From Escherichia phage 6948: a DNA stretch of 44,545 bases. Positions 25,395 to 42,958 of this stretch are shown here, one piece after another. The stretch is from the sequence record OL362272.1. One strand, written 5' to 3'. Every line of letters begins with the position of its first letter. Position 1 is the stretch's first letter. A model generated the notes under the pieces. The model saw nothing but the letters and a program-made list of their open reading frames with translations, did not search any database and was not told where the DNA came from. The translations under genes and the position numbers were made by a program.

Positions 25395-26394
25395 GCTTCG
25401 CAGCTTGTACAAAGACTCCGAGGTACTTGATGCAATCGAGCAAGCTACCGACGAGAAAGGTAATGTTAATTACAATGAGATGGCACGTGTATTATCGTGT
25501 CACCCTGTGGGTAAGAAGATTACCCGCCAGTTGGCTCGATACTGGCATGGTCAATTCAAGAAGACCAAGAAGAATGGTGATTATTACCAGACCCTTCTGC
25601 AAGAAGATAAGCGTATCAAAGAAGAGCGTAAGCTCAGGACTCCTGACCGCTACGAGGATTTGGCTATTGTTCCATTGCCTGACTCGCCTCATCGAAGTGT
25701 ACTGGTGATACCTGATACTCATGCACCTTATGAGCACCCAGATACCCTAGAGTTCCTTGCAGCCGTGGCAGCACGTTACCGTCCAGACACAGTGGTACAC
25801 CTAGGAGATGAGGCAGACAAACATGCCTTGTCATTCCACGATTCGGACCCAAATCTGGATAGTGCTGGCATGGAGTTAGAGAAGGCTCGTATCTTCATGC
25901 ACAAATTGCACAAGATGTTCCCTGTGATGCGCCTGTGTCACTCCAACCACGGCTCTATGCACTTCCGTAAGGCAAGCGCCAAGGGCATCCCTGTGCAATA
26001 CCTGCGCACCTACCGTGAAGTTTTCTTCCCGCAGGGAGGTGGCGACCAGTGGGATTGGCAACATACGCACGTCCTTGAGTTGCCGAATGGTGAACAAGTG
26101 GCATTCAAGCATCAACCTGCTGGCTCTGTCCTAGCAGATGCAGCGCATGAGCGTATGAACCTTGTGTGTGGTCACTTGCACGGTAAGATGTCTGTGGAGT
26201 ACGCACGTAATACACATGAACAGTATTGGGCTGTGCAAGGTGGCTGCTTAATTGATGAGTCATCCCGTGCATTTGCCTATGGTCGTGAGTCTAAATACAA
26301 GCCAGCATTAGGTTGTGTGGTCATTCTGGAGGGTGTGCCTCACATTGTCCCGATGCAAACCAATAGCGACAACCGTTGGATTGGCAAGATTTAG
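25387..26394 (+). CDS. calcineurin-like metallophosphoesterase
   Basis: 335 aa from TTG 25387 with AGGAGG 7 nt upstream; motifs VIPDTHAPYEH (DxH), HLGDEAD (GDxxD), CHSNHG (GNH). Confidence 0.7.
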   Translation: MGKLRSLYKDSEVLDAIEQATDEKGNVNYNEMARVLSCHPVGKKITRQLARYWHGQFKKTKKNGDYYQTLLQEDKRIKEERKLRTPDRYEDLAIVPLPDSPHRSVLVIPDTHAPYEHPDTLEFLAAVAARYRPDTVVHLGDEADKHALSFHDSDPNLDSAGMELEKARIFMHKLHKMFPVMRLCHSNHGSMHFRKASAKGIPVQYLRTYREVFFPQGGGDQWDWQHTHVLELPNGEQVAFKHQPAGSVLADAAHERMNLVCGHLHGKMSVEYARNTHEQYWAVQGGCLIDESSRAFAYGRESKYKPALGCVVILEGVPHIVPMQTNSDNRWIGKI

Positions 26395-26411
26395 TTGACA
26401 CTATAGAACAA
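26389..26411 (+). promoter_or_regulatory. phage-RNAP promoter (most SP6-like copy)
   Basis: ATTTAGTTGACACTATAGAACAA. Confidence 0.65.
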
Positions 26412-26999: not shown

Positions 27000-27947
27000 A
27001 TGAATATCTTTGAGTTCCTAGGTCTTCCAGAAGATCACCGCAATCACCCATTCATGCTGGTGAAGCATCGCGGTGAAGTTCCTGAGAAGAAATTAACTTT
27101 TCCATGTTATGCACAGGTGAAACGAGATGGAATATTCAGTGCTGTTGTGGTGCGTAATGATGGTGCTGTTGCCATCTTTGGTCGTACTGGTAAGAAGCTC
27201 GCAAATGTTGAATCCTTGGAAAAGACATTTAGTGTATTTCCTGTCGGGTTGTATCTTGGTGAGTTGCAATCTATGGCTGTTGATGTTTATCTTGAAGCTC
27301 TGTCAGGAGTGGTAAACCCTAATCGTACAGAGCCACTTGACTTCATAGGCCAGCAGATTAAAGACAACCTGTATATCGACTTCTTCGATATGTTAACTAT
27401 TAAGGCATTCCATGATGGATTCACTGATGTTTCTTATCTCAAACGTTACGATGCTTTACATCGTCGCATCGGCACTCATCTTAGCGGGTACAACGCTATT
27501 CTTCCTATTACTCCTTGCCATAATGAGCGAGAGGTTGAAGCGTTTGCTCAAGAGCAAATAGATGCAGGCAGAGAAGGTGCGGTATTTAAACTTGACGTGG
27601 AGTACGAAAGTGGGCACAAGGGCTATCGTCAAACGAAGATCGTTCGTATGGTATCTTATGACCTCACCTGCATTGGGTGGGAGGAAGGAAAAGGTAAGTA
27701 TAAAGGTAAAGTAGCTAATTTAATCTTTAAATGGAAAGGTGGTAAGTCCGTTAAGGCTATGCTGGGGCGTGGCTGGTCACATGAGGATGCAGCACAGATG
27801 TATCACGATATTAAGCACGGTGGCGAACTGAACGTCATTGGGAAGATCTTCGCTGTCAAGGCGTTGCAGGAATCTAGCAAGGGAGTCCTGAGACTTCCCA
27901 AGGTTTCTGAATTACGCCACGATAAGGAGGTTCCTGATGTTTATTGA
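27000..27947 (+). CDS. ATP-dependent DNA ligase
   Basis: 315 aa; adenylation motif I AQVKRDGIF (KxDG), motif EGAVFK, C-terminal LRLPKVSELRHDK. Confidence 0.85.
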   Translation: MNIFEFLGLPEDHRNHPFMLVKHRGEVPEKKLTFPCYAQVKRDGIFSAVVVRNDGAVAIFGRTGKKLANVESLEKTFSVFPVGLYLGELQSMAVDVYLEALSGVVNPNRTEPLDFIGQQIKDNLYIDFFDMLTIKAFHDGFTDVSYLKRYDALHRRIGTHLSGYNAILPITPCHNEREVEAFAQEQIDAGREGAVFKLDVEYESGHKGYRQTKIVRMVSYDLTCIGWEEGKGKYKGKVANLIFKWKGGKSVKAMLGRGWSHEDAAQMYHDIKHGGELNVIGKIFAVKALQESSKGVLRLPKVSELRHDKEVPDVY

Positions 27948-28062
27948 TTTGAACGAAAAACAGCTTGAATTGTTAATAGAAGCCATTGAGCAATACTATT
28001 ACATGTGGGGCTATCAGTCAGAAGAATTAGACTCCTTATATTCACAACTAAAAGGGGGTTAA
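27937..28062 (+). CDS. small hypothetical protein
   Basis: 41 aa, RBS AAGGAGG; overlaps the ligase stop. Confidence 0.25.
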   Translation: MFIDLNEKQLELLIEAIEQYYYMWGYQSEELDSLYSQLKGG

Positions 28063-28064
28063 TT

Positions 28065-28262
28065 ATGTCTTTTGATTCTATGAAGGCAACTCGTGCTGTT
28101 GAGGTAGCAGAGGCCATCTTCGAAACTCTATCCTGTGGCATGGAAGTGCCATATACTTTACTGGCTGATGCAGAAGAACTTGGTCTTTCTGTAGAAGCTA
28201 TCCAAGAGAAGGTTGACGAATTATATGGTACAGACGAAGAAGAAACCGACGATTTCATTTGA
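28065..28262 (+). CDS. small acidic hypothetical protein
   Basis: 65 aa, RBS AAAGGGGG; acidic C-terminus TDEEETDDFI. Confidence 0.4.
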   Translation: MSFDSMKATRAVEVAEAIFETLSCGMEVPYTLLADAEELGLSVEAIQEKVDELYGTDEEETDDFI

Positions 28263-28266
28263 AGGA

Positions 28267-28395
28267 ATGGAGATGCTTGAGATGATTCTCAAGCCTTCTT
28301 CTCCTAAGGTGACTAAGACTCATGAAGAGTTAATCGTTGATGAGGTTAAGCGTTACATCATGGATTGTGTCAGAGCACAACTGGTGATCCAATGA
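28267..28395 (+). CDS. small hypothetical protein
   Basis: 42 aa; stop overlaps the GNAT start (ATGA). Confidence 0.3.
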   Translation: MEMLEMILKPSSPKVTKTHEELIVDEVKRYIMDCVRAQLVIQ

Positions 28396-28853
28396 TACGT
28401 CCAGCTTCCTTCCTAGATATTCCTGAGATTATAAACCTTGGGAATAAATATGTGGAAGAGGAAGTCAAGGTTGTAGCCCACCACTCAGCCTCATGGAATG
28501 CAGAACAAAGTGCACATAACCTTTGTGCATCTCTTAGTAGAGAAGATTTATTCCTATGGGTTGCTGTAGATGAAGGGCAGATTGTAGGGTTCCTGTGGGC
28601 TGGCTATCACGAGTTGGCCCCTTGGACACCTGTAAGAGTTGCCTCTGACATTCTCTTTTATATTATACCAGAGAGGCGAGGAACACTTCTTGGTATGCGT
28701 CTCATCAAAGCCCTAAAGCAATGGGCTAGTGATAATGAATGCTCTGAGGTTCGCCTGTCTATCGCCTCTGGTATTAATGAAGAACGTGTCGGACGTATGT
28801 ATAAGCGACTTGGCTTTGAACCGTTTGGCACTGTGTATAACATGAAGTTCTAA
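28392..28853 (+). CDS. GNAT-family N-acetyltransferase
   Basis: 153 aa; acetyl-CoA-binding motif A IPERRGTLLGMRLIKAL and C-terminal KRLGFEP, typical GNAT fold signature. Confidence 0.7.
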   Translation: MIRPASFLDIPEIINLGNKYVEEEVKVVAHHSASWNAEQSAHNLCASLSREDLFLWVAVDEGQIVGFLWAGYHELAPWTPVRVASDILFYIIPERRGTLLGMRLIKALKQWASDNECSEVRLSIASGINEERVGRMYKRLGFEPFGTVYNMKF

Positions 28854-28862
28854 GGAGATAAC

Positions 28863-29072
28863 ATGGGTGTTGTAAAGAAAGCATTTAAGGCTATCGGTCT
28901 TGCTCAAGATGCACCACGTATTGAAGCCAAAGTACCAGCACAGCAGCTTGAGCGTAAACCTGAGACTGAAGCTGAAGATATTCAAATTGGTGCAGGTGGT
29001 GATGATGCGACTGCATCTGCAAAAGGTAAGCGCGGCCTTGTCCGTCCGGTGGCTTCTAGCTTGAAGGTGTGA
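28863..29072 (+). CDS. small virion-associated protein (gp6.7-like), tentative
   Basis: 69 aa, RBS AAGGAG, low-complexity basic/Ala-rich; immediately upstream of portal. Confidence 0.4.
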   Translation: MGVVKKAFKAIGLAQDAPRIEAKVPAQQLERKPETEAEDIQIGAGGDDATASAKGKRGLVRPVASSLKV

Positions 29073-29073
29073 T

Positions 29074-30624
29074 ATGAAACAGAGCACAGATTTGGAGTAT
29101 GGAGGTAAGAGATCTAAGATACCTAAGCTATGGGAGAAGTTCTCCACTAAACGTAGCTCTTTCCTTGATAGGGCGAAGCATTACTCCAAATTAACCTTGC
29201 CCTATCTGATGAATGACAAAGGTGATAACGAGACTTCGCAGAATGGATGGCAAGGTGTAGGTGCTCAGGCAACTAATCATCTAGCCAACAAGCTAGCGCA
29301 AGTACTATTCCCTGCACAGCGTTCCTTCTTCCGTGTAGACTTAACTGCACAAGGTGAGAAGGTTCTTAATCAGCGTGGCCTGAAGAAGACAGAGCTAGCT
29401 ACCATCTTCGCTCAAGTGGAAACACGGGCAATGAAAGAGTTAGAGCAACGTCAATTCCGGCCTGCTGTAGTAGAAGCATTTAAGCATCTTATTGTTGCTG
29501 GCAGCTGTATGCTATACAAGCCGAGCAAAGGTGCAATCAGTGCTATCCCAATGCATCACTACGTAGTTAACCGTGATACCAATGGCGACCTGTTAGACAT
29601 TATCTTGCTACAAGAGAAAGCCTTACGTACCTTTGACCCAGCTACACGTGCTGTAGTAGAGGTTGGCCTGAAAGGTAAGAAGTGCAAAGAAGATGACAGC
29701 GTTAAGCTGTACACACATGCTAAGTATCTTGGTGATGGATTTTGGGAACTCAAGCAATCTGCTGATGATATCCCTGTGGGTAAGGTGAGTAAAATCAAAT
29801 CAGAAAAGCTACCTTTCATCCCATTAACTTGGAAGCGAAGCTATGGTGAGGATTGGGGTCGCCCTCTTGCAGAGGATTACTCCGGTGATTTATTCGTTAT
29901 CCAATTCTTATCTGAAGCGGTTGCCCGTGGTGCTGCGCTGATGGCAGATATCAAGTACCTGATTCGTCCGGGTGCTCAAACTGATGTTGACCACTTTGTT
30001 AACTCTGGCACTGGTGAGGTTATCACTGGTGTAGAAGAAGACATCCATATTGTACAGTTAGGTAAGTATGCAGACCTCACACCTATTAGCGCGGTTCTAG
30101 AGGTATACACTCGCCGTATCGGTGTTGTCTTCATGATGGAGACAATGACACGCCGTGACGCCGAACGTGTTACTGCTGTAGAAATCCAGCGAGATGCGTT
30201 AGAGATTGAGCAGAACATGGGTGGTGTATACTCCCTCTTTGCTACTACTATGCAATCGCCAGTAGCGATGTGGGGTCTGCTGGAGGCAGGGGAGTCCTTC
30301 ACTAGTGACCTAGTGGACCCTGTGATTATTACAGGTATTGAAGCTTTAGGACGCATGGCTGAGTTGGATAAACTGGCTAACTTTGCTCAGTATATGTCAC
30401 TGCCATTACAATGGCCTGAGCCTGTCCTAGCTGCTGTGAAATGGCCTGACTATATGGATTGGGTGCGTGGTCAAATCTCTGCTGAACTGCCGTTCCTTAA
30501 ATCAGCTGAAGAGATGGCACAAGAACAGGAAGCACAGATGCAAGCACAGCAAGCACAGATGCTTGAAGAAGGTGTGGCTAAGGCCGTGCCGGGTGTAATT
30601 CAACAAGAACTTAAGGAGGCGTAA
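29074..30624 (+). CDS. portal (head-tail connector) protein
   Basis: 516 aa; position and size; segment WQGVGAQATNHLANKLAQVLFP resembles the T7 gp8 N-terminal region. Confidence 0.85.
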   Translation: MKQSTDLEYGGKRSKIPKLWEKFSTKRSSFLDRAKHYSKLTLPYLMNDKGDNETSQNGWQGVGAQATNHLANKLAQVLFPAQRSFFRVDLTAQGEKVLNQRGLKKTELATIFAQVETRAMKELEQRQFRPAVVEAFKHLIVAGSCMLYKPSKGAISAIPMHHYVVNRDTNGDLLDIILLQEKALRTFDPATRAVVEVGLKGKKCKEDDSVKLYTHAKYLGDGFWELKQSADDIPVGKVSKIKSEKLPFIPLTWKRSYGEDWGRPLAEDYSGDLFVIQFLSEAVARGAALMADIKYLIRPGAQTDVDHFVNSGTGEVITGVEEDIHIVQLGKYADLTPISAVLEVYTRRIGVVFMMETMTRRDAERVTAVEIQRDALEIEQNMGGVYSLFATTMQSPVAMWGLLEAGESFTSDLVDPVIITGIEALGRMAELDKLANFAQYMSLPLQWPEPVLAAVKWPDYMDWVRGQISAELPFLKSAEEMAQEQEAQMQAQQAQMLEEGVAKAVPGVIQQELKEA

Positions 30625-31544
30625 TGTCTTTCTCATTTACTGAACCGTCAACCACTCACCCTACTACTGAAGAGGTTCCGGTAGAAACCAAGGAGGTAAC
30701 AACTGATGCTGCTACTACTGATGCTACTGCTGACGCTGGCACTGCTGTACAAGATGACAATGCTGGTGCACAACCTACTGAAGACACCGGAGGAGAAGCT
30801 TCTGGACAGCCTTCAGAAAAAGGAGACAATGGCGGAGAGAATGGTGAATCTAAGCCAGATGATACCGCGACCGACACTGAGGAAGTGCAATACTTCTTCG
30901 GAGAACATGAAGTAACAATAGACATCCCACAGGATGTAACTGACAGCCTTAAAGAGAAAGGCATTGATGCCAAGCAGGTTGCCAAGGAACTATATTCCAA
31001 AGGTGGCAAGTTTGAACTGTCAGATGCAACCAAGCAGAAATTGTATGATGCTTTTGGCAAGTTTGCGGTAGATGCTTACCTGTCAGGTCTTAAGGCTCAA
31101 AATGAAGCCTTCTTCCTGAAAGAAGCCAACGCAGCTAAAGAGTTGGAAGCAGTTAACACCCAACGATTCTCTGATGTTTCTAAGGAAATTGGTGGCGAAG
31201 AAGGTTGGTCCCGTCTTGAGGAGTGGGCGCTTGAAACGCTATCCGATGACGAACTCACGGCATTCAATGCTGTGATGGAGTCTGGCAACCAGTACCTCCA
31301 GCAGTACGCTGTGCGTGAACTGGAGAGCCGCCGTAAGGCTGCACAGGGTGATGATAGGCCATCCCTGATTGAGCCATCAGCACCTGCTAAGGCTAATGAA
31401 GAGAATGGCCCACTGACGCGAGATCAGTACGTTCAAGCAATCGCAACTCTTAGCCAGAAGTACGGCAATGACCGTAAAGCTATGGCAGAAGCTCAAGCTA
31501 AACTGGACGCCCGTCGCCGTGCTGGCATGGCTCGCGGTATCTAA
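30624..31544 (+). CDS. capsid assembly scaffolding protein
   Basis: 306 aa, acidic low-complexity N-terminus, helical C-terminus; between portal and capsid. Confidence 0.7.
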   Translation: MSFSFTEPSTTHPTTEEVPVETKEVTTDAATTDATADAGTAVQDDNAGAQPTEDTGGEASGQPSEKGDNGGENGESKPDDTATDTEEVQYFFGEHEVTIDIPQDVTDSLKEKGIDAKQVAKELYSKGGKFELSDATKQKLYDAFGKFAVDAYLSGLKAQNEAFFLKEANAAKELEAVNTQRFSDVSKEIGGEEGWSRLEEWALETLSDDELTAFNAVMESGNQYLQQYAVRELESRRKAAQGDDRPSLIEPSAPAKANEENGPLTRDQYVQAIATLSQKYGNDRKAMAEAQAKLDARRRAGMARGI

Positions 31545-32832: not shown

Positions 32833-32840
32833 TACCTATG

Positions 32841-32875
32841 CCCTATCTACCTTGCGTAGGTAGGGTTCTTTTTGT
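32841..32875 (+). terminator. intrinsic terminator after the capsid gene
   Basis: 10-bp stem CCCTATCTAC / GTAGGTAGGG, loop CTTGC, then TTCTTTTTG; near-identical architecture to the 23710 terminator. Confidence 0.6.
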
Positions 32876-32886
32876 TAGGAGGATTC

Positions 32887-33624
32887 ATGCCTGTTATTAA
32901 ACAACAAAGTTACACTGGCTATACTGTCTCAGATGTAGCCTTTCAAGTGATTGATAGTAAGCTGGAGGCTGTTAACCTTTGTATGCGAGCCATTGGTCGT
33001 GAGGGTGTGGATTCTCTCGACTCAGGCGACCTTGATGCTGAAGATGCTAGCAAAATGATTGATATCGTCTCCCAACGTTTCCAATACAACAAAGGCGGTG
33101 GCTGGTGGTTCAATCGTGAACCTAACTGGCAGCTTGCACCAGACACGAACGGTGAGATTAACTTGCCTAATAACTGCCTAGCTGTATTGCAGTGCTACGC
33201 ATTGGGTGAGAAGAAAGTGCCTATGACTATGCGTGCAGGTAAGCTCTACTCTACTTGGAGTCACACCTTTGATATGCGTAAGCATGTTAATGCTAATGGT
33301 ATGATTCGTCTTACCTTACTCACCTTACTACCCTACGAGCATTTACCTACAAGTGTAATGCAGGCTATTGCCTATCAAGCTGCTGTAGAGTTTATTGTGT
33401 CTAAGGATGCAGATCAGACTAAGCTAGCCACTGCGCAGCAGATAGCCACTCAGCTTCTTATGGATGTACAATCTGAGCAAATGTCACAGAAGCGATTAAA
33501 CATGCTGGTACATAACCCCACTCAGCGTCAGTTTGGTATCATGGCTGGTGGCTCTCAGAATGTGCCTGCTTACTCTCATTCACCTTATGAGAGTTGGGCG
33601 CTCCGTCCGTGGGAGGATCGTTAA
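32887..33624 (+). CDS. tail tubular protein A (gp11-like)
   Basis: 245 aa from ATG 32887 (AGGAGG); position after capsid. Confidence 0.7.
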   Translation: MPVIKQQSYTGYTVSDVAFQVIDSKLEAVNLCMRAIGREGVDSLDSGDLDAEDASKMIDIVSQRFQYNKGGGWWFNREPNWQLAPDTNGEINLPNNCLAVLQCYALGEKKVPMTMRAGKLYSTWSHTFDMRKHVNANGMIRLTLLTLLPYEHLPTSVMQAIAYQAAVEFIVSKDADQTKLATAQQIATQLLMDVQSEQMSQKRLNMLVHNPTQRQFGIMAGGSQNVPAYSHSPYESWALRPWEDR

Positions 33625-36026
33625 TGGAAGTACAAGGTTCATTAGGTAGACAAATCCAAGGGATTAGCCAGCAGCCGCCAGCGGTACGCTTGGATGGTCA
33701 GTGCACAGCTATGGTTAATATGATACCTGATGTAGTGAATGGTACTCAATCACGAATGGGTACAACTCATATTGCAAAGATACTTGATGCTGGGACTGAT
33801 GACATGGCTATTCATCATTATCGCAGAGGTGATGGTGATGAAGAGTATTTCTTCACGTTGAAGAAAGGACAAGTTCCTGAGATATTTGATAAGTATGGGC
33901 GCAAATGTAATGTGACTTCACAAGATGCACCTATGACCTACCTCTCTGAGGTTGTTAATCCAAGGGAAGATGTACAATTCATGACGATAGCTGATGTTAC
34001 TTTCATGCTTAATCGTAGGAAAGTAGTTAAAGCTAGTAACAGGAAGTCACCTAAAGTTGGAAACAAAGCCATTGTGTTTTGTGCGTATGGTCAATATGGT
34101 ACATCTTATTCCATTGTAATTAATGGGACCAACGCTGCTAGTTTTAAAACACCGGATGGTGGAAGTGCAGACCATGTTGAACAAATTCGAACTGAACGTA
34201 TCACTTCTGAATTGTACTCTAAGTTGCAGCAATGGAGCGGTGTGAGTGACTATGAAATACAAAGAGACGGTACTAGTATATTTATCGAGAGACGGGATGG
34301 TGCTAGCTTTACAATAACAACCACCGATGGTGCAAAAGGTAAGGACTTAGTGGCTATCAAGAATAAAGTTAGCTCTACTGACCTACTCCCTTCTCGTGCG
34401 CCTGCTGGTTATAAAGTACAAGTGTGGCCTACTGGCAGCAAACCTGAGTCTCGTTACTGGCTGCAAGCTGAGCCTAAAGAGGGAAACCTTGTGTCTTGGA
34501 AAGAAACAATAGCTGCTGATGTATTACTTGGGTTTGATAAAGGCACAATGCCTTACATTATTGAACGTACAGATATCATCAACGGCATAGCTCAATTCAA
34601 GATAAGACAAGGTGATTGGGAAGATCGTAAAGTAGGGGATGACTTGACTAACCCTATGCCCTCTTTTATTGATGAGGAAGTACCCCAGACAATAGGTGGA
34701 ATGTTCATGGTGCAGAACCGCCTATGCTTTACAGCAGGTGAAGCGGTTATTGCTTCTCGTACATCCTACTTCTTCGATTTCTTTCGTTATACGGTTATCT
34801 CTGCATTGGCAACTGACCCCTTTGATATTTTCTCAGATGCTAGTGAAGTCTACCAGCTAAAACATGCAGTGACCTTAGATGGCGCTACCGTGTTGTTCTC
34901 TGATAAGTCACAATTCATACTGCCAGGCGATAAGCCTTTAGAGAAGTCAAATGCACTGCTTAAGCCTGTTACAACATTTGAAGTGAACAATAAAGTGAAG
35001 CCAGTAGTAACTGGTGAATCGGTAATGTTTGCCACTAATGATGGTTCTTACTCTGGTGTACGAGAGTTCTATACAGACTCTTATAGTGACACTAAGAAGG
35101 CACAAGCAATCACAAGTCATGTGAATAAACTCATCGAAGGTAACATTACCAACATGGCAGCAAGCACCAATGTCAACAGGTTACTTGTCACTACCGATAA
35201 GTATCGTAACATAATCTACTGCTACGATTGGTTATGGCAAGGAACAGACCGTGTACAATCAGCATGGCATGTATGGAAGTGGCCTATAGGTACAAAGGTG
35301 CGAGGTATGTTTTATTCTGGTGAATTACTTTACCTGCTCCTTGAGCGAGGAGATGGCGTGTATCTGGAGAAGATGGACATGGGTGATGCACTAACCTATG
35401 GTTTGAATGACCGCATCAGAATGGATAGGCAAGCAGAGTTAGTCTTCAAGCATTTCAAAGCAGAAGATGAATGGGTATCTGAGCCGCTCCCTTGGGTTCC
35501 TACTAACCCAGAACTTTTAGATTGCATCTTAATCGAGGGTTGGGATTCATATATTGGCGGCTCTTTCTTATTCAAGTACAACCCTAGTGACAATACTTTG
35601 TCTACAACCTTTGATATGTATGATGACAGCCATGTAAAAGCGAAGGTTATTGTTGGTCAGATTTACCCTCAAGAGTTTGAACCTACGCCTGTGGTTATCA
35701 GAGACAATCAAGACCGTGTATCCTACATTGATGTACCAGTTGTAGGATTGGTTCACCTTAATCTTGACATGTACCCCGATTTCTCCGTAGAAGTTAAGAA
35801 TGTGAAGAGTGGTAAAGTACGTAGAGTATTAGCGTCAAACCGTATAGGTGGTGCTCTCAATAATACAGTAGGCTATGTTGAACCGAGAGAAGGTGTCTTC
35901 AGATTTCCACTGAGAGCTAAGAGCACGGATGTTGTTTATCGTATTATTGTAGAGTCACCTCACACATTCCAGCTTCGTGATATTGAGTGGGAAGGGAGCT
36001 ACAATCCAACCAAAAGGAGGGTCTAA
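33624..36026 (+). CDS. tail tubular protein B (gp12-like)
   Basis: 800 aa; N-terminal QGISQQP segment resembles the T7 gp12 N-terminus; size and position. Confidence 0.8.
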   Translation: MEVQGSLGRQIQGISQQPPAVRLDGQCTAMVNMIPDVVNGTQSRMGTTHIAKILDAGTDDMAIHHYRRGDGDEEYFFTLKKGQVPEIFDKYGRKCNVTSQDAPMTYLSEVVNPREDVQFMTIADVTFMLNRRKVVKASNRKSPKVGNKAIVFCAYGQYGTSYSIVINGTNAASFKTPDGGSADHVEQIRTERITSELYSKLQQWSGVSDYEIQRDGTSIFIERRDGASFTITTTDGAKGKDLVAIKNKVSSTDLLPSRAPAGYKVQVWPTGSKPESRYWLQAEPKEGNLVSWKETIAADVLLGFDKGTMPYIIERTDIINGIAQFKIRQGDWEDRKVGDDLTNPMPSFIDEEVPQTIGGMFMVQNRLCFTAGEAVIASRTSYFFDFFRYTVISALATDPFDIFSDASEVYQLKHAVTLDGATVLFSDKSQFILPGDKPLEKSNALLKPVTTFEVNNKVKPVVTGESVMFATNDGSYSGVREFYTDSYSDTKKAQAITSHVNKLIEGNITNMAASTNVNRLLVTTDKYRNIIYCYDWLWQGTDRVQSAWHVWKWPIGTKVRGMFYSGELLYLLLERGDGVYLEKMDMGDALTYGLNDRIRMDRQAELVFKHFKAEDEWVSEPLPWVPTNPELLDCILIEGWDSYIGGSFLFKYNPSDNTLSTTFDMYDDSHVKAKVIVGQIYPQEFEPTPVVIRDNQDRVSYIDVPVVGLVHLNLDMYPDFSVEVKNVKSGKVRRVLASNRIGGALNNTVGYVEPREGVFRFPLRAKSTDVVYRIIVESPHTFQLRDIEWEGSYNPTKRRV

Positions 36027-36748
36027 TGGCTATAGGTTCAGCCGTTATGGCTGGTATGTCTTCTATTGGTAGCATGTTTGCAGGCAGTGGTGCAGCAGCC
36101 GCTGCTGGAGGTGCTGCCGCAGGTGGCGGAGGTTTGCTAGGTTCACTAGGTGGATTCCTAAGTGGCTCTACTGCTGGTTTCTCTAATGCTGGCCTTCTTG
36201 GTGCTGGCCTTCAAGGGTTAGGCTTGATTGGTGATCTATTTGGTGGAAGTGATGAAGCCAAGGCGATGAAGAAAGCACAAGAAGAGCAATGGCGGCAGCA
36301 GCTTATTGCTACACAAGAGGCGTACAAGACAGTGGCAGACGCAGAACGTTCTGCTGCTAAACAATATCATGCAGATGCAATCAGTAATCAGGCTTCACTG
36401 CTACAGCAGCGAGCACAGGTTGCATTACTTGCTGGGGCTACTGGTACTGGTGGTAATTCTGTGTCCTCTATGCTTAATGACTTAGCAGCAGATGGCGGCA
36501 GGAACCAGAGTACTATCATTGATAACTATGAGAATCAGAAGATTAATTTCACCAACCAGCTTAAGTCTATCCAACGTGGTGGTCAGATGCAGATGCGTGA
36601 GTTTAAGAAGCCTTCTGCTATGAATACCTTGGTTAAAGGTATTCCAAGTCTGGCATCTGCCTATGTAACTGGTAGTAAGTCTGGCAAGGCATTGGGTAAA
36701 GCCTTAACTGATTCTCGCACATATTCATCTGGAACAAGAGGTATTTAA
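36026..36748 (+). CDS. internal virion protein A (Gly/Ala-rich)
   Basis: 240 aa, RBS AAAGGAGGG; Gly/Ala-rich N-terminus; first of three ejection-protein genes. Confidence 0.6.
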   Translation: MAIGSAVMAGMSSIGSMFAGSGAAAAAGGAAAGGGGLLGSLGGFLSGSTAGFSNAGLLGAGLQGLGLIGDLFGGSDEAKAMKKAQEEQWRQQLIATQEAYKTVADAERSAAKQYHADAISNQASLLQQRAQVALLAGATGTGGNSVSSMLNDLAADGGRNQSTIIDNYENQKINFTNQLKSIQRGGQMQMREFKKPSAMNTLVKGIPSLASAYVTGSKSGKALGKALTDSRTYSSGTRGI

Positions 36749-39696
36749 TGGCAATTGAGCGACAAGCAGTACAAGGTCTGCCACAAGTGCAGGCCACTTC
36801 TCCTAATGTCATGACCTTTGCACCTCAACAAGTGGGAGGTGTGGAGGCTGGCGTGGCTTCTACCTCCGGTAGTAGGTTTATCGAAGACCTTATTCGTGCA
36901 GCAAGCAGCGTGGCTGATGTTACCACTGGTATCCTTAATCAGAAGATTGAGGAAGATAAGGTTGTTCAAATGGAACGGGCATATAACGGATTAATGCCTT
37001 CTGAGGATGCAACTCGTGGTGGCGCTCGTGCTAACATGCTTGTCAAAGCTCAACTGCTAGCTAATGATGAAGCAGCACGAATGAAAGACATGGCTACTCG
37101 TTTCCAAGGGACGGATGACGAGTGGACACAACTTATGGTTGACTCTCGTAATGAGATGCAGAATAAGCTGTTCCAGCAATACCCTGAGTTGCAAGGTGAC
37201 AAAGATACTATGCGTATGGTCACTAATGTCTTCCAAGAACAGCAGCCTCAGATTTGGGCTACACGAACCCAGCATAAACTTGACCGTGAACAAGCAGACC
37301 GTGAGGATACCTTTGACGGGCGAGTGGCTTCTACTTGGGATTCTAATATTGACCCTGAAGCCTCTGGCTATGCTTTACAGGAACGAATCCGCGAAGGTCT
37401 TACTCAAGGATTACTACCTGAACAGATGCACAAGAAGTTAGTCCAGCGAGCAATTTCACTTGCACAAGGCGGTGATGTTAGCATGGCTGAAGCCCTGAAG
37501 TATGTGAAGGACGATAAGGGTGTTTCTGTTTATGCTAAGAATCCACAGCTTATCACAGCCATCACTAGTGGTAATGCAGTTTGGGCTAGGAATAATGTAG
37601 CTGATGTAACTCGTATGTCTTTCGAAGTTAAAGAATCCTACCTTGCAGGTGATTTAACTGATGAAGAATTGTTGGAACGAGCACAGCACATTAATAATCT
37701 GACAGGTAACTCTGTCTTCTCTAATCCAGAGCTAGAGGCACTGATGCGCCAACGGGCTAAGCAGAATGCAGAGCTAGGTGCAATGCAGGATATGCGACGT
37801 GAGCTTTACTCCGACCGCCTGACTGGCTTCCAAGGTAAGACTGATAAAGAGAAGAAGGCTTACATTGATGTTATCAAACAGGATAGCCAACTTTATGCAG
37901 ACCAGCAAATCAAACAACGTGGCTTGGACCCTTACAGTCAAGAGGCTGAAGCTATTCGTGGTGCAGTGGAAGTGCAGCGCCTGCAATTCATGAACTCCAA
38001 AGGCTTAGTGGATGATACCTTTGAGTCTCGTATCAAAGCCATGGAATCTATGCTATCGCCTGAGCACTTTGCCAAGGGCGAACCACAGGAGTTGATGACT
38101 ATTCGCCAGTTGTGGGAACAGTTGCCAGAAGAGAGCCGAGGTGTCTTTGGTGACACGGTGAATGGCTACATGGATAACTACAACACTGCACTACAAATGG
38201 GAGAGACACCTTTGCAGGCTGCAAGGTTTGCGCGTGAAGCACAGCAGAAATTCTCTCGTACTGAGAAGGAAACCAAGAAGTTCAACTCAGCTATTGGAGA
38301 TGCACTGGATGAGGTATCTGGTGCTGGCTGGTTTGATGGTAAAACCGAAGTGTCAGACTTAGGTAAAGCTATTGCGGAAGAAGAGTTACGAGCTAAGGCC
38401 AATATGTTGTGGTCTAGTGGTATGCGTAACATGGATTCTATCAAGAAGGCTTTAATTACTTGGGGCAATAAACGCTACACTCAAACAGAGGATGCAAAGA
38501 CTTCCGGTGGCTATTTCATTAAAGGTGATTACACTTCTGCATCTGATATGCTTATGTCAGTTGGGAAAGGCGTAAACCCTACTGATGTACCTCTGGCGCT
38601 TGGTAGGTATGTAGAAACACAGATGCCAGAATTGAAGAAGGAGCTTCAAGAGTGGGAAACTAAAGATGATATATACATTGATTACAATGAACAGAAAGGT
38701 ACTTTCGTGATTCGTGCTGGTGCAGCAGGTCGCCCTCTTTCTGGAGTAATCCCTGTAACCTCTTTAGATACCACTTCACTACTAGATTCTGCCTATCAGA
38801 AGAAAGTAGAGGAACGAGATAAAGGCGAGTATGTTCACCCTTATCGTACAGATATTGGTGCACAAGAGCCTATGCCAGCTAAACCAACTGCCAAAGATAT
38901 TGGTAAATTTGGACTAGCTAACTTCCTCATGTCTTCTGCTTTTGCTTCTGGTGAGAATCTGCCTTCTAACTTCGAGATTAACTATCGAGGTAATATGCAA
39001 CAATTCTATGACAAGCTAGCTATGGATGAGAATAAAGATAAAGTTGGCTTTAATAAGGCAACTGGAACCTTTACTCCATATAAAGATGCCCACGGTGAGT
39101 CTATCGGTTACGGTCATTTCTTAACGGAAGAAGAGAAGCGAAACGGGTATATTAAGATTGGTGATGAACTAGTTCCCTATCGAGGGTCTATGTCTCAGCT
39201 TACAGAGAGCAAGGCTCGCGCTCTTATGGAGCAAGATGCCAAGAAGCATGTGCCTCCTACTCGTGACTGGAAGATTCCGTTTGACCAGATGCATCCTGCA
39301 CAGCAACGTGGCTTGATGGATTTAACCTACAATTTAGGTAAAGGTGGAATCCAGAACTCACCGCGTGCTCTTGCTGCATTCAAAGCTGGTAAGCTTACGG
39401 AAGGCTTTATCGAAATGCTGGGCACTGCATCAAGTGAAGGTAAGCGTATTCCTGGCCTACTGAAGCGACGCGCTGAGGCATACAATATGGCATCTGCTGG
39501 TGGTGTGCCTAAGATTACCGAAGTGGAGACTCGTGAAGATGGCTCCATGTGGGTTAGGTTTGGTGGACCTATGCCAGCAGGTTCTGTCTCGGCATGGACT
39601 CATAAACGTATTGGCGCGGATGGTTGGTATCAGGTTTATGAGGCTGCACCTACCAAGTTAGCTAAAGGTTCTAAGGTAGGTAAATTTAAGTTGTAG
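36748..39696 (+). CDS. internal virion protein B with lysozyme-like (T4-lysozyme-type) domain
   Basis: 982 aa; C-terminal region contains GYGHFLTEEEK...LMDLTYNLG resembling T4 lysozyme GIGHLLT...AINMVFQMG. Confidence 0.75.
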   Translation: MAIERQAVQGLPQVQATSPNVMTFAPQQVGGVEAGVASTSGSRFIEDLIRAASSVADVTTGILNQKIEEDKVVQMERAYNGLMPSEDATRGGARANMLVKAQLLANDEAARMKDMATRFQGTDDEWTQLMVDSRNEMQNKLFQQYPELQGDKDTMRMVTNVFQEQQPQIWATRTQHKLDREQADREDTFDGRVASTWDSNIDPEASGYALQERIREGLTQGLLPEQMHKKLVQRAISLAQGGDVSMAEALKYVKDDKGVSVYAKNPQLITAITSGNAVWARNNVADVTRMSFEVKESYLAGDLTDEELLERAQHINNLTGNSVFSNPELEALMRQRAKQNAELGAMQDMRRELYSDRLTGFQGKTDKEKKAYIDVIKQDSQLYADQQIKQRGLDPYSQEAEAIRGAVEVQRLQFMNSKGLVDDTFESRIKAMESMLSPEHFAKGEPQELMTIRQLWEQLPEESRGVFGDTVNGYMDNYNTALQMGETPLQAARFAREAQQKFSRTEKETKKFNSAIGDALDEVSGAGWFDGKTEVSDLGKAIAEEELRAKANMLWSSGMRNMDSIKKALITWGNKRYTQTEDAKTSGGYFIKGDYTSASDMLMSVGKGVNPTDVPLALGRYVETQMPELKKELQEWETKDDIYIDYNEQKGTFVIRAGAAGRPLSGVIPVTSLDTTSLLDSAYQKKVEERDKGEYVHPYRTDIGAQEPMPAKPTAKDIGKFGLANFLMSSAFASGENLPSNFEINYRGNMQQFYDKLAMDENKDKVGFNKATGTFTPYKDAHGESIGYGHFLTEEEKRNGYIKIGDELVPYRGSMSQLTESKARALMEQDAKKHVPPTRDWKIPFDQMHPAQQRGLMDLTYNLGKGGIQNSPRALAAFKAGKLTEGFIEMLGTASSEGKRIPGLLKRRAEAYNMASAGGVPKITEVETREDGSMWVRFGGPMPAGSVSAWTHKRIGADGWYQVYEAAPTKLAKGSKVGKFKL

Positions 39697-39712
39697 TATC
39701 TAACTCAAGGCT

Positions 39713-39730
39713 TGTCTCACATGTGAGACA
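39713..39730. repeat. conserved palindrome family, TGTCTCACATGTGAGACA (copy 6)
   Basis: Between internal virion proteins B and D; extended stem GGCTTG.../...CAGGTC, then TCTTTAT. Confidence 0.75.
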
Positions 39731-39760
39731 GGTCTTTATGATAGGCACTATGGAGGAATT

Positions 39761-42700
39761 ATGGAACAAGACATTAAGACTAATTGGGCTGGATATGTCC
39801 AGTCTACTCCTGAGCCGTTTTCTATTGAGGCGGCTCCGGTATCGGCTCCTACGATACGCCAGCGTAATGAGTTACAAGAGCAAGTTCTTGAAGCTAAAGC
39901 TGATGCTGATATCTTAGGTGCTGTAGGTGCTGCCTTCCAGAATGAGTGGTTGGCATTCGGAGGCAAGCGGTGGTATGACCGTGCCACTGCTGATTTCACA
40001 CCTCAACCAGACTTCGAGATACAACCTGAGCAACGTGAAGCACTACGTTTCAAATATGGTACAGATATGATGCAGACAATCACTGAGGGTGTTCGTTCTG
40101 AGGATGAATTGAACTTCCGTATTCAGAATGCTGATGAAGACCTTGAGCGCAATAAGCGCATTGCTCAGGCTGGCTGGGTTGGCTCTGTGGCGACGATTGG
40201 CGCTGCTGTGCTTGACCCTGTGGGATGGGTTGCCTCTATTCCAACCGGTGGTGCCGCTAAAGTTGGACTCGTAGGCCGTGCTGTGCGTGGCGCTATCGCC
40301 GCTGGCGTAAGTAATGCCGCTATTGAATCCGTATTGGTCCAAGGTGACATGACTCGTGATTTAGATGACATTATGGTAGCACTAGGCTCCGGTATGGCTA
40401 TGGGTGGCGTTATTGGAGCTGTAGCGCGTGGTCGGGCCACTAAGCTCAGTGAGCAAGGAGATGACAGGGCTGCGAGCATTGTGCGCAGTGCAGACGCAGG
40501 GGACCGCTATGTGCGTGCTGTTGCTGATGACAGTATCGGTGCGATGCGTGTTAAGGGCGAAGAGGTACTCACTGAGGGCGCATTTGATATATCTAGTAAA
40601 GGCGAAGACTTGCTGAAAACATTGCAGAGGGAGGGAAACTCTATTGATATGACCCCTCGCCGCTGGGCCGGAACCATGTCTGCCCTTGGGACTGTCGTGC
40701 ACTCCTCTCATGATGCTAGTGTTCGTGGCCTCGGTGCTCGCCTGTTTGAGTCTCCGCAAGGTTTAGGTATGCAAAAGGCATCTGCCAGTCTTATGCAGAA
40801 TACCAACTTGAATCGACTGAAGTCTGCTGATATGAACCGTTTCAATGACGGGTTTGACTTATGGCTCAAAGAAAATAATATCAATCCAGTTGCAGGCCAT
40901 ACTAACTCTCACTATGTGCAGCAATATAATGAGAAGGTATGGGAAGCTGTACGCATCGGTATGGATGAGTCTACGCCTAAGTCTATCCGTATGGCAGCAG
41001 AGGGGCAGCAAGCTATGTACCGAGAAGCCTTAGCTTTAAGGAAGCGCTCCGGTGAAGCTGGCTTTGAAAACATTAAAGCAGATAGTAAGTATATGCCTGA
41101 TATCTTTGACACTATGAAAGCTCGCCGTCAATTTGATAGGATAGGAAAGGATATAGATAAAGAAGATATCATTGAGTTATTCTCTCGTGCTTATCAGAAC
41201 GGCGCTCGTAAAATTCCAAAAGAAGTAGCGGATGAAATTGCACGAGCACAAGTAAACCGTGTTGTGGATGCCACTCTGACAGGACGTATGAGTTTCGAAA
41301 AGGCTATGTCTGGTCAGACTAAAGCCGAGTATGAAGCAATAATGCGCAAGGCAGGCTTCAGTGATGAAGAAATTGAAAAGATGGTAGAAGCTCTGGATAA
41401 CAAAGAAACCAGAGATAACATCTCTAACCGAGCTAAAATGAGTTTAGGACTAGATGTTACTCAAGAATACAATGGTATTCGTATGCGTGACTTCATGAAT
41501 ACCAACGTGGAAGAGCTAACAGATAACTATATGAAGGAGGCAGCAGGTGGCGCTGCATTGGCCCGTCAAGGATTCTCTACCTATCAGGCTGCACTTAATG
41601 CAATTGACCTTGTAGAGCGAAATGCACGAAACGCGGCTAAGGATAGCAAGGCTAGCTTAGCACTAGATGAAGAGATTCGTCAAATGCGAGAAGGGCTTCG
41701 CTTGATTATGGGTAAATCTATCGATGTAGACCCACAGGCTTTGTCTACTAAAATGCTGCGACGTGGTCGTGACATTACAGGTGTGCTTCGCTTAGGTCAG
41801 ATGGGCTTCGCACAGCTAGGCGAACTTGCTAACTTCATGGGTGAGTTTGGTATTGCTGCAACCACTATAGCTTTAGGTAAGCAATTCCGCTTTACATCTA
41901 AGGCTTTGCGGAGCGGTGATGGCTTCTTTCGAGATAAGAACTTGGCAGAAGTAGAGAGAATGGTAGGTTACATTGGTGAGGATAACTGGCTAACAACCAA
42001 GGGTGCACGTCCAGATGAGTTTGGTGATGTAACCACAGTAAAAGGAATGATGGCTCACTTTGACCAATCCATGAACTCAATACGTCGTGCTCAGACCAAC
42101 CTATCACTTTTCCGCATGGCACAGGGTTCTCTGGAGCGAATGACCAATAGGCAAATAGCTTTGTCTTTCATTGACCACCTTGAAGGCAAGAAGATTATTC
42201 CTCAGAAGAAACTGGAGGAACTTGGTCTTACTCAGGAGTTCATGACTAATCTACAGAAGCACTATGATGCTAACTCTAAAGGTTCTGGCTTGCTTGGCTT
42301 TGATACAATGCCTTATGCCATGGGTGAAACTTTAGCTAATGCTATTCGTCGTAAGTCAGGTCTAATTATCCAACGTAACTTCATCGGTGATGAAGGTATC
42401 TGGATGAACAAAGCACTAGGTAAGACATTTGCACAGCTTAAGTCATTCTCTCTTGTATCTGGTGAGAAGCAATTTGGTCGAGGGATTCGCCACGATAAAA
42501 TTGGTCTTGCTAAGAAGACAGCTTACGGGTTTGCTTTGGGTTCAATAGTGTATGCGGCAAAAGCCTATGTGAACTCTATTGGGCGAGAAGACCAAGATGA
42601 ATATTTGGAAGAGAAGTTATCTCCTAAAGGGTTGGCCTTTGGTGCAATGGGTATGATGAGTACAACTGCTGTATTTAGTCTAGGTGGAGATTTCTTAGGT

Positions 42701-42958
42701 GGCCTAGGTGTTCTACCTTCTGAGTTAGTACAATCCCGTTATGAGGCTGGCTTTCAGACTAAGGGTTTGATAGACCAAATACCACTAGTAGGTGTTGGTC
42801 AAGATGCATATCGTTTAGCAGATTCTATAACTAAATATGCAGAGGGTGATACAGAAGGTGTAGATGTGGCACGTAGGGCTTTACGCTTAGTGCCTCTAAC
42901 TAATGTAATAGGAATCCAGAACGCATTGCGTTATGGCTTAGATGAACTGGAGGATTGA
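39761..42958 (+). CDS. internal virion protein D (large ejection/core protein)
   Basis: 1065 aa; largest structural gene, positioned as T7 gp16. Confidence 0.7.
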   Translation: MEQDIKTNWAGYVQSTPEPFSIEAAPVSAPTIRQRNELQEQVLEAKADADILGAVGAAFQNEWLAFGGKRWYDRATADFTPQPDFEIQPEQREALRFKYGTDMMQTITEGVRSEDELNFRIQNADEDLERNKRIAQAGWVGSVATIGAAVLDPVGWVASIPTGGAAKVGLVGRAVRGAIAAGVSNAAIESVLVQGDMTRDLDDIMVALGSGMAMGGVIGAVARGRATKLSEQGDDRAASIVRSADAGDRYVRAVADDSIGAMRVKGEEVLTEGAFDISSKGEDLLKTLQREGNSIDMTPRRWAGTMSALGTVVHSSHDASVRGLGARLFESPQGLGMQKASASLMQNTNLNRLKSADMNRFNDGFDLWLKENNINPVAGHTNSHYVQQYNEKVWEAVRIGMDESTPKSIRMAAEGQQAMYREALALRKRSGEAGFENIKADSKYMPDIFDTMKARRQFDRIGKDIDKEDIIELFSRAYQNGARKIPKEVADEIARAQVNRVVDATLTGRMSFEKAMSGQTKAEYEAIMRKAGFSDEEIEKMVEALDNKETRDNISNRAKMSLGLDVTQEYNGIRMRDFMNTNVEELTDNYMKEAAGGAALARQGFSTYQAALNAIDLVERNARNAAKDSKASLALDEEIRQMREGLRLIMGKSIDVDPQALSTKMLRRGRDITGVLRLGQMGFAQLGELANFMGEFGIAATTIALGKQFRFTSKALRSGDGFFRDKNLAEVERMVGYIGEDNWLTTKGARPDEFGDVTTVKGMMAHFDQSMNSIRRAQTNLSLFRMAQGSLERMTNRQIALSFIDHLEGKKIIPQKKLEELGLTQEFMTNLQKHYDANSKGSGLLGFDTMPYAMGETLANAIRRKSGLIIQRNFIGDEGIWMNKALGKTFAQLKSFSLVSGEKQFGRGIRHDKIGLAKKTAYGFALGSIVYAAKAYVNSIGREDQDEYLEEKLSPKGLAFGAMGMMSTTAVFSLGGDFLGGLGVLPSELVQSRYEAGFQTKGLIDQIPLVGVGQDAYRLADSITKYAEGDTEGVDVARRALRLVPLTNVIGIQNALRYGLDELED

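Follow-up and report, generated by a model that had tools for sequence, protein, structure and literature searches.

The gene located at positions 28392 to 28853 of the genome of Escherichia phage 6948 (sequence record OL362272.1), which was analysed over its whole stretch of 44,545 nucleotides (the window), codes for a GNAT-family acetyltransferase and is the SP6-group occupant of what we refer to as the “gene 7 slot” of the Autographiviridae. The most useful outcome of the analysis is comparative, i.e., the gene 7 slot is a GNAT slot, while the gene is ordinary in itself, a conserved core gene of the K1E/K1-5/SP6-type phages. Regarding its function, the reading that we favour, with a probability of about 40%, is that of a non-virion protein acetyltransferase serving the assembly of the tail and ejection proteins or the infectivity of the particle, rather than a host takeover like the one ascribed to the Rac protein of phage LUZ19.

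A gene coding for a GNAT-fold protein of about 150 amino acids (aa) is found directly 5' of the gp7.3 orthologue, with the portal one gene further, in four subfamilies of the Autographiviridae. The order small open reading frame (ORF), GNAT, gp7.3 orthologue, portal, scaffold, promoter and capsid was found in K1E and in all 29 SP6-like loci, in phi-A318 and uligo (Colwellvirinae), in LUZ19, Axy23, phiB1_1 and MR8 (Krylovirinae), in LIMEzero, and in the T7-like Ghunavirus/Phutvirus phages KNP, Henninger, Lepni01 and PPpW-4. In T7 the slot is occupied by gene 7 (133 aa, annotated as “host range”), located between 6.7 and 7.3. A prior annotation made from the letters alone, hereafter the sequence-only reading, had presented GNAT enzymes as foreign to the canonical T7 gene set. 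This was misleading, because the window belongs to a K1E/K1-5/SP6-type phage in which the gene is an annotated core gene, and because the slot holds a GNAT-fold protein in the four subfamilies, cryptically also in the case of T7 gene 7.

The connection with the preceding gene is also widespread. In the annotations, the GNAT coding sequence (CDS) and the CDS before it share 4 nt in K1E, phi-A318, uligo, KNP, Henninger, LIMEzero, Lepni01 and PPpW-4, and 1 nt in LUZ19 and T7, and since most slot phages have such an overlap, coupling to the upstream gene appears to be a family trait. No homology was detected among the small upstream ORFs themselves (SP6 gp26, those of Colwellvirinae, phiKMV gp27 and T7 gp6.7), in a comparison for which the automatic extraction of gp26 from other loci was poor. 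The family of the upstream ORF differs between subfamilies while the overlap persists, which argues against a toxin-antitoxin pair. On the downstream side, the gp28 of the window (69 aa) matched phrog_1320 with E 1.9e-11 (T7 gp7.3 itself gives 9.7e-30), and both proteins have MGxxKK at the N-terminus and, at the C-terminus, a basic stretch that terminates in G-[IL]-N. By profile alignment (hhalign) gp28 also matched its counterparts in Colwellvirinae (E 8e-10) and in the phiKMV group (E 2e-4). Over the four subfamilies the gp7.3 orthologues start with Met-Gly (or Ser/Ala), continue with a Lys-rich stretch and finish in a basic C-terminus whose last residues are G-[IL]-N-[IVY]. The T7-type gp6.7 proteins all start with MCF. 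Removal of the Met would expose the N-termini of both kinds of proteins, which are encoded beside the GNAT gene.

The assignment of the phage itself is straightforward. By megablast, the region 27900-29200 matched 79 phage genomes, all of them Vectrevirus or SP6-like, with identities of 99.5% to Vectrevirus LI10P3, 97.5% to K1-5 and 94% to K1E. These matches, together with the length of 44,545 bp and the gene order, place the phage in the SP6 branch (Molineuxvirinae) of the T7-related phages and not among the strict T7-type ones, and they fit a complete Vectrevirus genome of the SP6-like K1E/K1-5 group, circularly permuted with respect to the K1E record. The gene was already known: gene 27 of K1E and K1-5 is labelled “acetyltransferase” in RefSeq and so is SP6 gene 28 in GenBank. 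They are the same gene as the one described here, with 95% identity in K1E and 75% in SP6, matching neighbours, the same ATGA overlap and no difference of substance in the 153-aa product. The protein of Escherichia phage 6949 is 100% identical. Altogether 248 phage records encode the GNAT according to tblastn, and in 232 of these the match covers 80% or more of the protein.

Conservation at the level of the locus was equally marked in the 29 SP6-like metagenomic loci retrieved from IMG/VR. The order ligase, gp25, gp26, GNAT, gp28, portal, scaffold and capsid was invariant in them, the intact 153-aa ORF was found together with the ATGA overlap and the GGTG element in 28 of the 29, and the dN/dS values of the GNAT gene relative to the window were between 0.04 and 0.20. 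The RefSeq version of K1-5 gene 27 has a 66-bp in-frame insertion (22 aa) after A29, in the a1-a2 loop. Part of the sequence is duplicated there in tandem, with HHSASWNAEQSA being repeated around ITFVHLLIET, and the insertion may be a lesion of the laboratory stock. Several phages of the K1E/K1-5/SP6 type are used in phage therapy.

The ORF extends from an ATG at 28392 to a TAA at 28851-28853 (153 codons, + strand) and is the only one similar to GNAT, Rac, gp7 or gp13 proteins among the 285 ORFs of the window. Its product exceeded the Pfam cut-offs for PF00583 Acetyltransf_1 (40.6 bits against 20.7, E 3.4e-10), PF13508 Acetyltransf_7 (38.1 against 27) and PF13673 Acetyltransf_10 (25.6 against 23.6), and it matched phrog_1249, “acetyltransferase”, over its full length (residues 1-152, E 4.8e-54). 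The AlphaFold2 model obtained with 34 homologues (pLDDT 90.2) has the full GNAT order b1-a1-a2-b2-b3-b4-a3-b5-a4-b6-b7. With an acetyl-CoA fold predicted, and the ORF intact in all but one of the 29 related loci, the GNAT assignment of the sequence-only reading withstood both of the checks that could have overturned it. The “clear GNAT motif A” that it had pointed out needs qualification. The segment ERRGTLLGMRLIKAL is indeed the motif A region (residues 94-108), and in the alignment of 34 sequences, with identities down to 52%, the consensus Q/R-x-x-G-x-G/A corresponds to R96-G97-T98-L99-L100-G101 of the window protein, with R96 and G97 invariant and the last position being G/A/S in most sequences and other residues in a few. 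However, the canonical Gly at the fourth position is absent, this position being variable across all 34. Invariant or nearly so were R96, G97, N129 and the C-terminal L-G-F. As judged from these sequence features, the product is genuine and probably active as an acetyl-CoA-dependent N-acetyltransferase.

The start of the gene was also described correctly in that reading: the TGA of gp26 (28393-28395) is intertwined with the GNAT ATG in an ATGA, implying a putative translational coupling of the two genes, and the virion genes follow immediately, gp28 (the gp7.3 orthologue) after a gap of 9 nt and then the portal.

The predicted transcription unit reinforces the connection with the assembly genes. 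The SP6-type promoter core GACACTATAG appears in the window at 100, 2205, 3880, 10116, 14199, 16717, 17408, 21658, 22121, 23267, 26397 and 31559, and the scan for this core gave no match between 26406 and 31551, i.e., between the nearest promoter upstream of the GNAT and the one ahead of the major capsid gene. A sigma-70 promoter scan around the GNAT gave only the count expected by chance. Matches resembling terminators were about twice as many as the mean for shuffled sequence, and the hairpin located after the capsid gene was the only strong one. From the promoter at 26389 to this hairpin at 32840 there are just two short terminator-like consensus matches (27482-27498 and 28275-28294), both upstream of the GNAT, and the scan around the gene found no terminator-like hairpin separating it from the portal. 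The lack of promoters between 26397 and 31559 and the lone strong hairpin at 32840 indicate that the GNAT is co-transcribed with the kinase and ligase genes upstream and with gp28, portal and scaffold downstream. On these sequence signals, a single predicted unit starting at promoter 26389 includes the ligase, the GNAT, the gp7.3 orthologue, the portal and the scaffold. The second of the short matches (GCTTGAGATGATTCTCAAGC followed by the pyrimidine-rich tail CTTCTTCTCC) lies inside the gp26 ORF, about 100 nt 5' of the GNAT start, and could be either fortuitous or a structure involved in translation or attenuation.

Among the other occupants of the slot, Rac (LUZ19 gp28) belongs to phrog_3986, and its single other PHROG match is phrog_1249, the family of the window protein (E 4.9e-4). 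Axy23 gp032 matched phrog_3986 (1e-27), phrog_2746, i.e., the T7 gp7 family (3e-8), and phrog_1249 (2e-6), and LIMEzero ORF36 and Henninger gp6 gave similar results. A search for Rac homologues in a set of 5.8 billion proteins retrieved one cluster only, and tblastn on phage genomes was used instead. A broad phrog_1249 alignment compared with a Rac-family alignment of ten members gave an hhalign probability of 97% (E 7e-11, 122 columns), and the narrow alignment of the window family gave 92% (E 6.7e-7). Outside comparisons of family with family the relationship is lost: the window protein did not match Rac by BLASTP nor phrog_3986 at E 0.01, and the narrow window profile against the single Rac sequence had an hhalign probability of 0.8%. 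The two proteins have in common the GNAT fold, a length of about 155 aa, the slot, and starts and ends that overlap or abut their neighbours. However, they belong to different PHROGs (3986 and 1249), and the D-x-H-V-G motif of the Rac family is absent from the 34-sequence alignment of the window family.

The T7 gp7 family is also modelled as a GNAT fold. Its match to the Rac family was weak (hhalign E 0.006), with the two families aligned in register and having a common D-x-H-(V/K)-G motif. T7 gp7 differs from the window protein in lacking a Pfam GNAT match, a conserved pyrophosphate loop and helix a4; from sequence and model, it is probably not an active acetyltransferase, while the window protein probably is. 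A search of the literature within reach gave no primary account of the phenotype of T7 gene 7; a “gp7” paper (Nature 2026) was discarded as a source for it because it concerns Gp77 of another phage.

Relatives outside the Autographiviridae are found in a different position. The gp26.2 of phage SIO1 matched phrog_1249 with E 2e-36 and was retrieved by the window protein in tblastn (27% identity, E 1e-8), and a member in YeP4 matched the same family with E 1.5e-44. In both phages the gene is located directly after a large tail gene (the tail appendage phrog_8094 in SIO1 and phrog_376 in YeP4) and is followed by internal virion proteins in YeP4 and by phrog_8168, without assigned function, in SIO1. 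The genes immediately flanking 39 distant viral loci numbered 77, the majority of them with no match to a listed PHROG family, and among those with a match the commonest were “DNA ejection protein” (10 plus 3), tail and major head proteins. The IMG/VR “DNA ejection protein” neighbours correspond to phrog_4287 and phrog_598, and in some IMG/VR contigs the phrog_1249 member is part of a 368-aa fusion. This second position is that of internal virion protein A (IVP-A), a non-structural protein serving to assemble the internal virion proteins, which has been assigned to an acetyltransferase family including T7 gp13 (for which the acetyltransferase match was by HHpred), SIO1 gp26.2 and homologues in P22 and epsilon15 (Hardies et al. 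2016, PMC4819975). SIO1 gp26.2 and the window protein are members of the same PHROG, small and encoded within virion-assembly operons. However, the position of IVP-A is different, since the window GNAT precedes the gp7.3 and portal genes, 5 kb upstream of tubular tail B and internal virion protein B (IVP-B). A gp13-slot gene was found neither in LUZ19 nor in phi-A318, nor in the window, where tubular tail B has no gp13/IVP-A-type gene between itself and IVP-B. The pattern that emerges is one in which the T7-like phages have a fold relic in both the gene 7 and the IVP-A slots, the SP6-, phiKMV- and Colwell-type phages a single copy in the gene 7 slot and the SIO1-, YeP4- and phiRIO-1-type phages a single copy in the IVP-A slot. 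The start of T7 gp13, MMTIRPTKSTDF, resembles the b1 start of the window GNAT, MIRPASFLDI.

A role in assembly or infectivity is favoured because of the virion proteome of phiPsa17, in which the gh-1-type gp7 was undetected while gp6.7 and gp7.3 were abundant (PMC4517105), and because of the persistent linkage of the family to gp7.3, portal or ejection-protein genes. In this scheme gp27 (we use for the window protein the K1E and K1-5 name) would be an accessory enzyme, absent from the virion, in the programme by which the head-tail and ejection proteins are assembled, and would acetylate one or more of the phage proteins that are produced with it. The best candidates as substrates would be the adjacent gp28, an ejected protein that is Lys-rich and has the N-terminal Met-Gly, and the internal core proteins. 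The modification would tune particle infectivity or host range, and gp27 would be equivalent to T7 gp7 and gp13 (IVP-A) as a non-structural assembly factor, with the difference that its catalysis would be intact.

Several facts weigh against this proposal. Rac, the single slot member that has been tested, acts on the host. The cofactor loop of T7 gp7 is degenerate and helix a4 is absent, so that an assembly role shared along the slot may not need catalysis, and yet the catalytic motifs of the window protein are under strong constraint. The profile match of the window family to T7 gp7 was not significant (E 0.017) and neither were those to the T7 gp13 family (hhalign E 0.03-0.08), which leaves the gp13 link resting on the published HHpred match and on the PHROG co-membership with SIO1 gp26.2. 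No acetylated virion protein is documented for the SP6/K1E phages, the literature search for a function of K1E gp27 or SP6 gp28 retrieved no paper, and PAT and SSAT, the nearest sequences with a solved structure, acetylate small molecules. Finally, the in-frame duplication of K1-5 hints that the gene may be dispensable, or tolerant to damage, in laboratory culture.

The sequence-only reading had proposed either a host component or a virion protein as the target, and both are still live options. If the target is in the host, gp27 would acetylate host proteins during mid-infection, possibly transcription, proteolysis or defence factors, so that functions of the host are stopped or rerouted, as could be expected from the position that it shares with Rac, from the profile homology between both families (E 7e-11), from the fact that the window family is the only other PHROG recognized by Rac, and from the intact GNAT motifs of the window enzyme. 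[quoted passage not shown] However, alpha cleavage has been seen in the genus Phikmvvirus only, and the LKA1 homologue, in the same slot, does not cause it (PMC7552054), so this genus-specific phenotype cannot be simply transferred to the window protein, and the role conserved along the slot is probably a different one. The window protein matches neither phrog_3986 nor, by BLASTP, Rac, its predicted expression is with the late assembly genes and not with the early takeover genes, and the members outside Autographiviridae are placed among ejection and tail genes. We thus consider a host takeover of this kind possible, although rather unlikely. An action on small molecules is a good deal less probable. 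The enzyme would then acetylate a metabolite, such as a polyamine, a toxic analogue of an amino acid or an anti-phage compound resembling the aminoglycosides, helping the DNA-packaging milieu or detoxifying an inhibitor. Among proteins of solved structure, those that the sequence matches best are a GNAT of Brucella (4j3g, E 7e-6) and diamine/thialysine (SSAT1/2) and phosphinothricin/MSO acetyltransferases, and the top NCBIfam matches are ArsN1 and AAC(6'). However, the PAT and SSAT matches of the PDB sequence search were weak and do not discriminate the functional clade, and the NCBIfam matches (ArsN1, AAC(6'), RimI and MshD) were all far below threshold and equally uninformative, e.g., 25-28 bits against cut-offs of 124-210. 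Moreover, such a strict linkage to gp7.3/portal or ejection-protein genes across podovirus families would be unexpected for a metabolic enzyme.

The same scores give no support to the finer classifications that the sequence-only reading had offered. Neither the aminoglycoside clade (AAC(6') in NCBIfam/AMRFinder, 25.3 bits against a cut-off of 140) nor the Rim-type clade (RimI TIGR01575, 22.7 against 86.4) is supported, and the AAC(6'), RimI and ArsN1 assignments were rejected with NCBIfam scores 4-10 fold under the cut-offs. As for the TacT/AtaT toxins, which it had also mentioned, we found no toxin-type match in Pfam or solved structures, no structural proximity and no antitoxin-like neighbour; toxins of this type, AAC(6') and RimI have in common with the window protein just the GNAT fold and the small size. 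A tRNA-acetylating toxin (TacT/AtaT/ItaT type) or another translation-targeting enzyme, with the small upstream gene as antitoxin, has in its favour that the GNAT is small and overlaps an upstream ORF that is small too. Nevertheless, neither the 42-aa gp26 nor gp28 has a DUF1778 or RHH match in Pfam, the upstream family changes between phage subfamilies while the overlap is kept, and the gene is a syntenic core gene in the late operon of a lytic phage, all of which makes this explanation extremely improbable. Less remote, and still improbable, is that the GNAT fold persists without catalysis and assists, as a chaperone or scaffold, the assembly of tail and ejection proteins, as may be the situation of T7 gp7 and gp13. 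T7 gp7 has kept the fold without the cofactor loop or helix a4, and the window family lacks the position-4 Gly of motif A. Against it, R96, G97, N129 and other residues of the acetyl-CoA-binding type are kept across the 34 sequences, and the window protein passes the Pfam GNAT cut-offs that T7 gp7 does not.

The proposal of an assembly-linked acetyltransferase can be extended to a broader hypothesis, which we regard as unlikely. The GNATs of the gene 7 slot (window protein, Rac and T7 gp7) and those of the IVP-A slot (SIO1 gp26.2, T7 gp13 and relatives) would form one ancient podovirus lineage tied to assembly, in which the SP6-type enzyme would acetylate or acylate ejected proteins made together with it, with gp28 as the prime candidate. 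If this were true, such a modification of ejected proteins would be a step in the maturation of virion proteins that had not been recognised before, and one by which infectivity or host range is set. The comparison of slots links the SP6-group enzyme to Rac, to the “host range” gene 7 of T7 and to the IVP-A assembly factors, and the SP6-type phages, with a single and apparently active copy, offer the cleanest system for the role of T7 gene 7, gp13 and their homologues.

Features of the window around the GNAT gene and along the downstream assembly genes
Feature	Position	Strand	Description and evidence
Phage RNA polymerase promoter	26389..26406	+	ATTTAGTTGACACTATAG; 1 mismatch to SP6 consensus; nearest promoter 5' of GNAT
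gp25	28065..28262	+	small acidic ORF, 65 aa; phrog_5860 E 6.6e-39
gp26	28267..28395	+	small upstream ORF, 42 aa from ATG (ORF opens at TTG 28213); phrog_6507 E 1.3e-26; K1E gene 26
Shine-Dalgarno-like GGTGA	28383..28387	+	4 nt 5' of GNAT ATG; sequence; GGTG kept in relatives
ATGA start/stop overlap	28392..28395	+	GNAT start with gp26 stop
GNAT acetyltransferase CDS	28392..28853	+	153 aa; K1E/K1-5 gp27, SP6 gp28; Pfam, PHROG, model, relatives
Motif A region E94-L108	28671..28715	+	ERRGTLLGMRLIKAL; 34-sequence alignment
AGGAG of gp28	28853-28857	+	sequence
gp28	28863..29072	+	69 aa; T7 gp7.3 orthologue (small virion/adsorption protein); phrog_1320 E 1.9e-11, phrog_9033 E 1.1e-12
Portal (head-tail adaptor), gp29	29074..30624	+	31-34% identity to T7 and LUZ19 portals
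Scaffolding protein, gp30	30624..31544	+	gene order and annotation of relatives
Next phage promoter	31551..31568	+	ahead of major capsid gene
Strong terminator-like hairpin	32840..32866	+	after capsid gene; sole strong one
Tubular tail B	33594..36026	+	phrog_457 / phrog_805 searches
Internal virion protein B	35987..36748	+	directly after tubular tail B; phrog_457 / phrog_805 searches

Some minor features of the neighbouring genes were also apparent. The gp25 gene was kept in all the 29 SP6-like loci that reach its position. In about half of the close relatives, K1-5 included, the match to the 27900-29200 query begins only at query position 166 or 176, and the stretch between ligase and gp25 (window 27900..28065) can thus be considered a variable indel region in this group of phages; a 41-aa ORF (27937..28062) sits there in the window. 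At the other end of the region, where the internal virion proteins are encoded (35987..42958), the IVP-B ORF (253 aa) overlaps the end of tubular tail B and its match to PHROG 805 begins at residue 67, so that the true start of the gene is probably further downstream.

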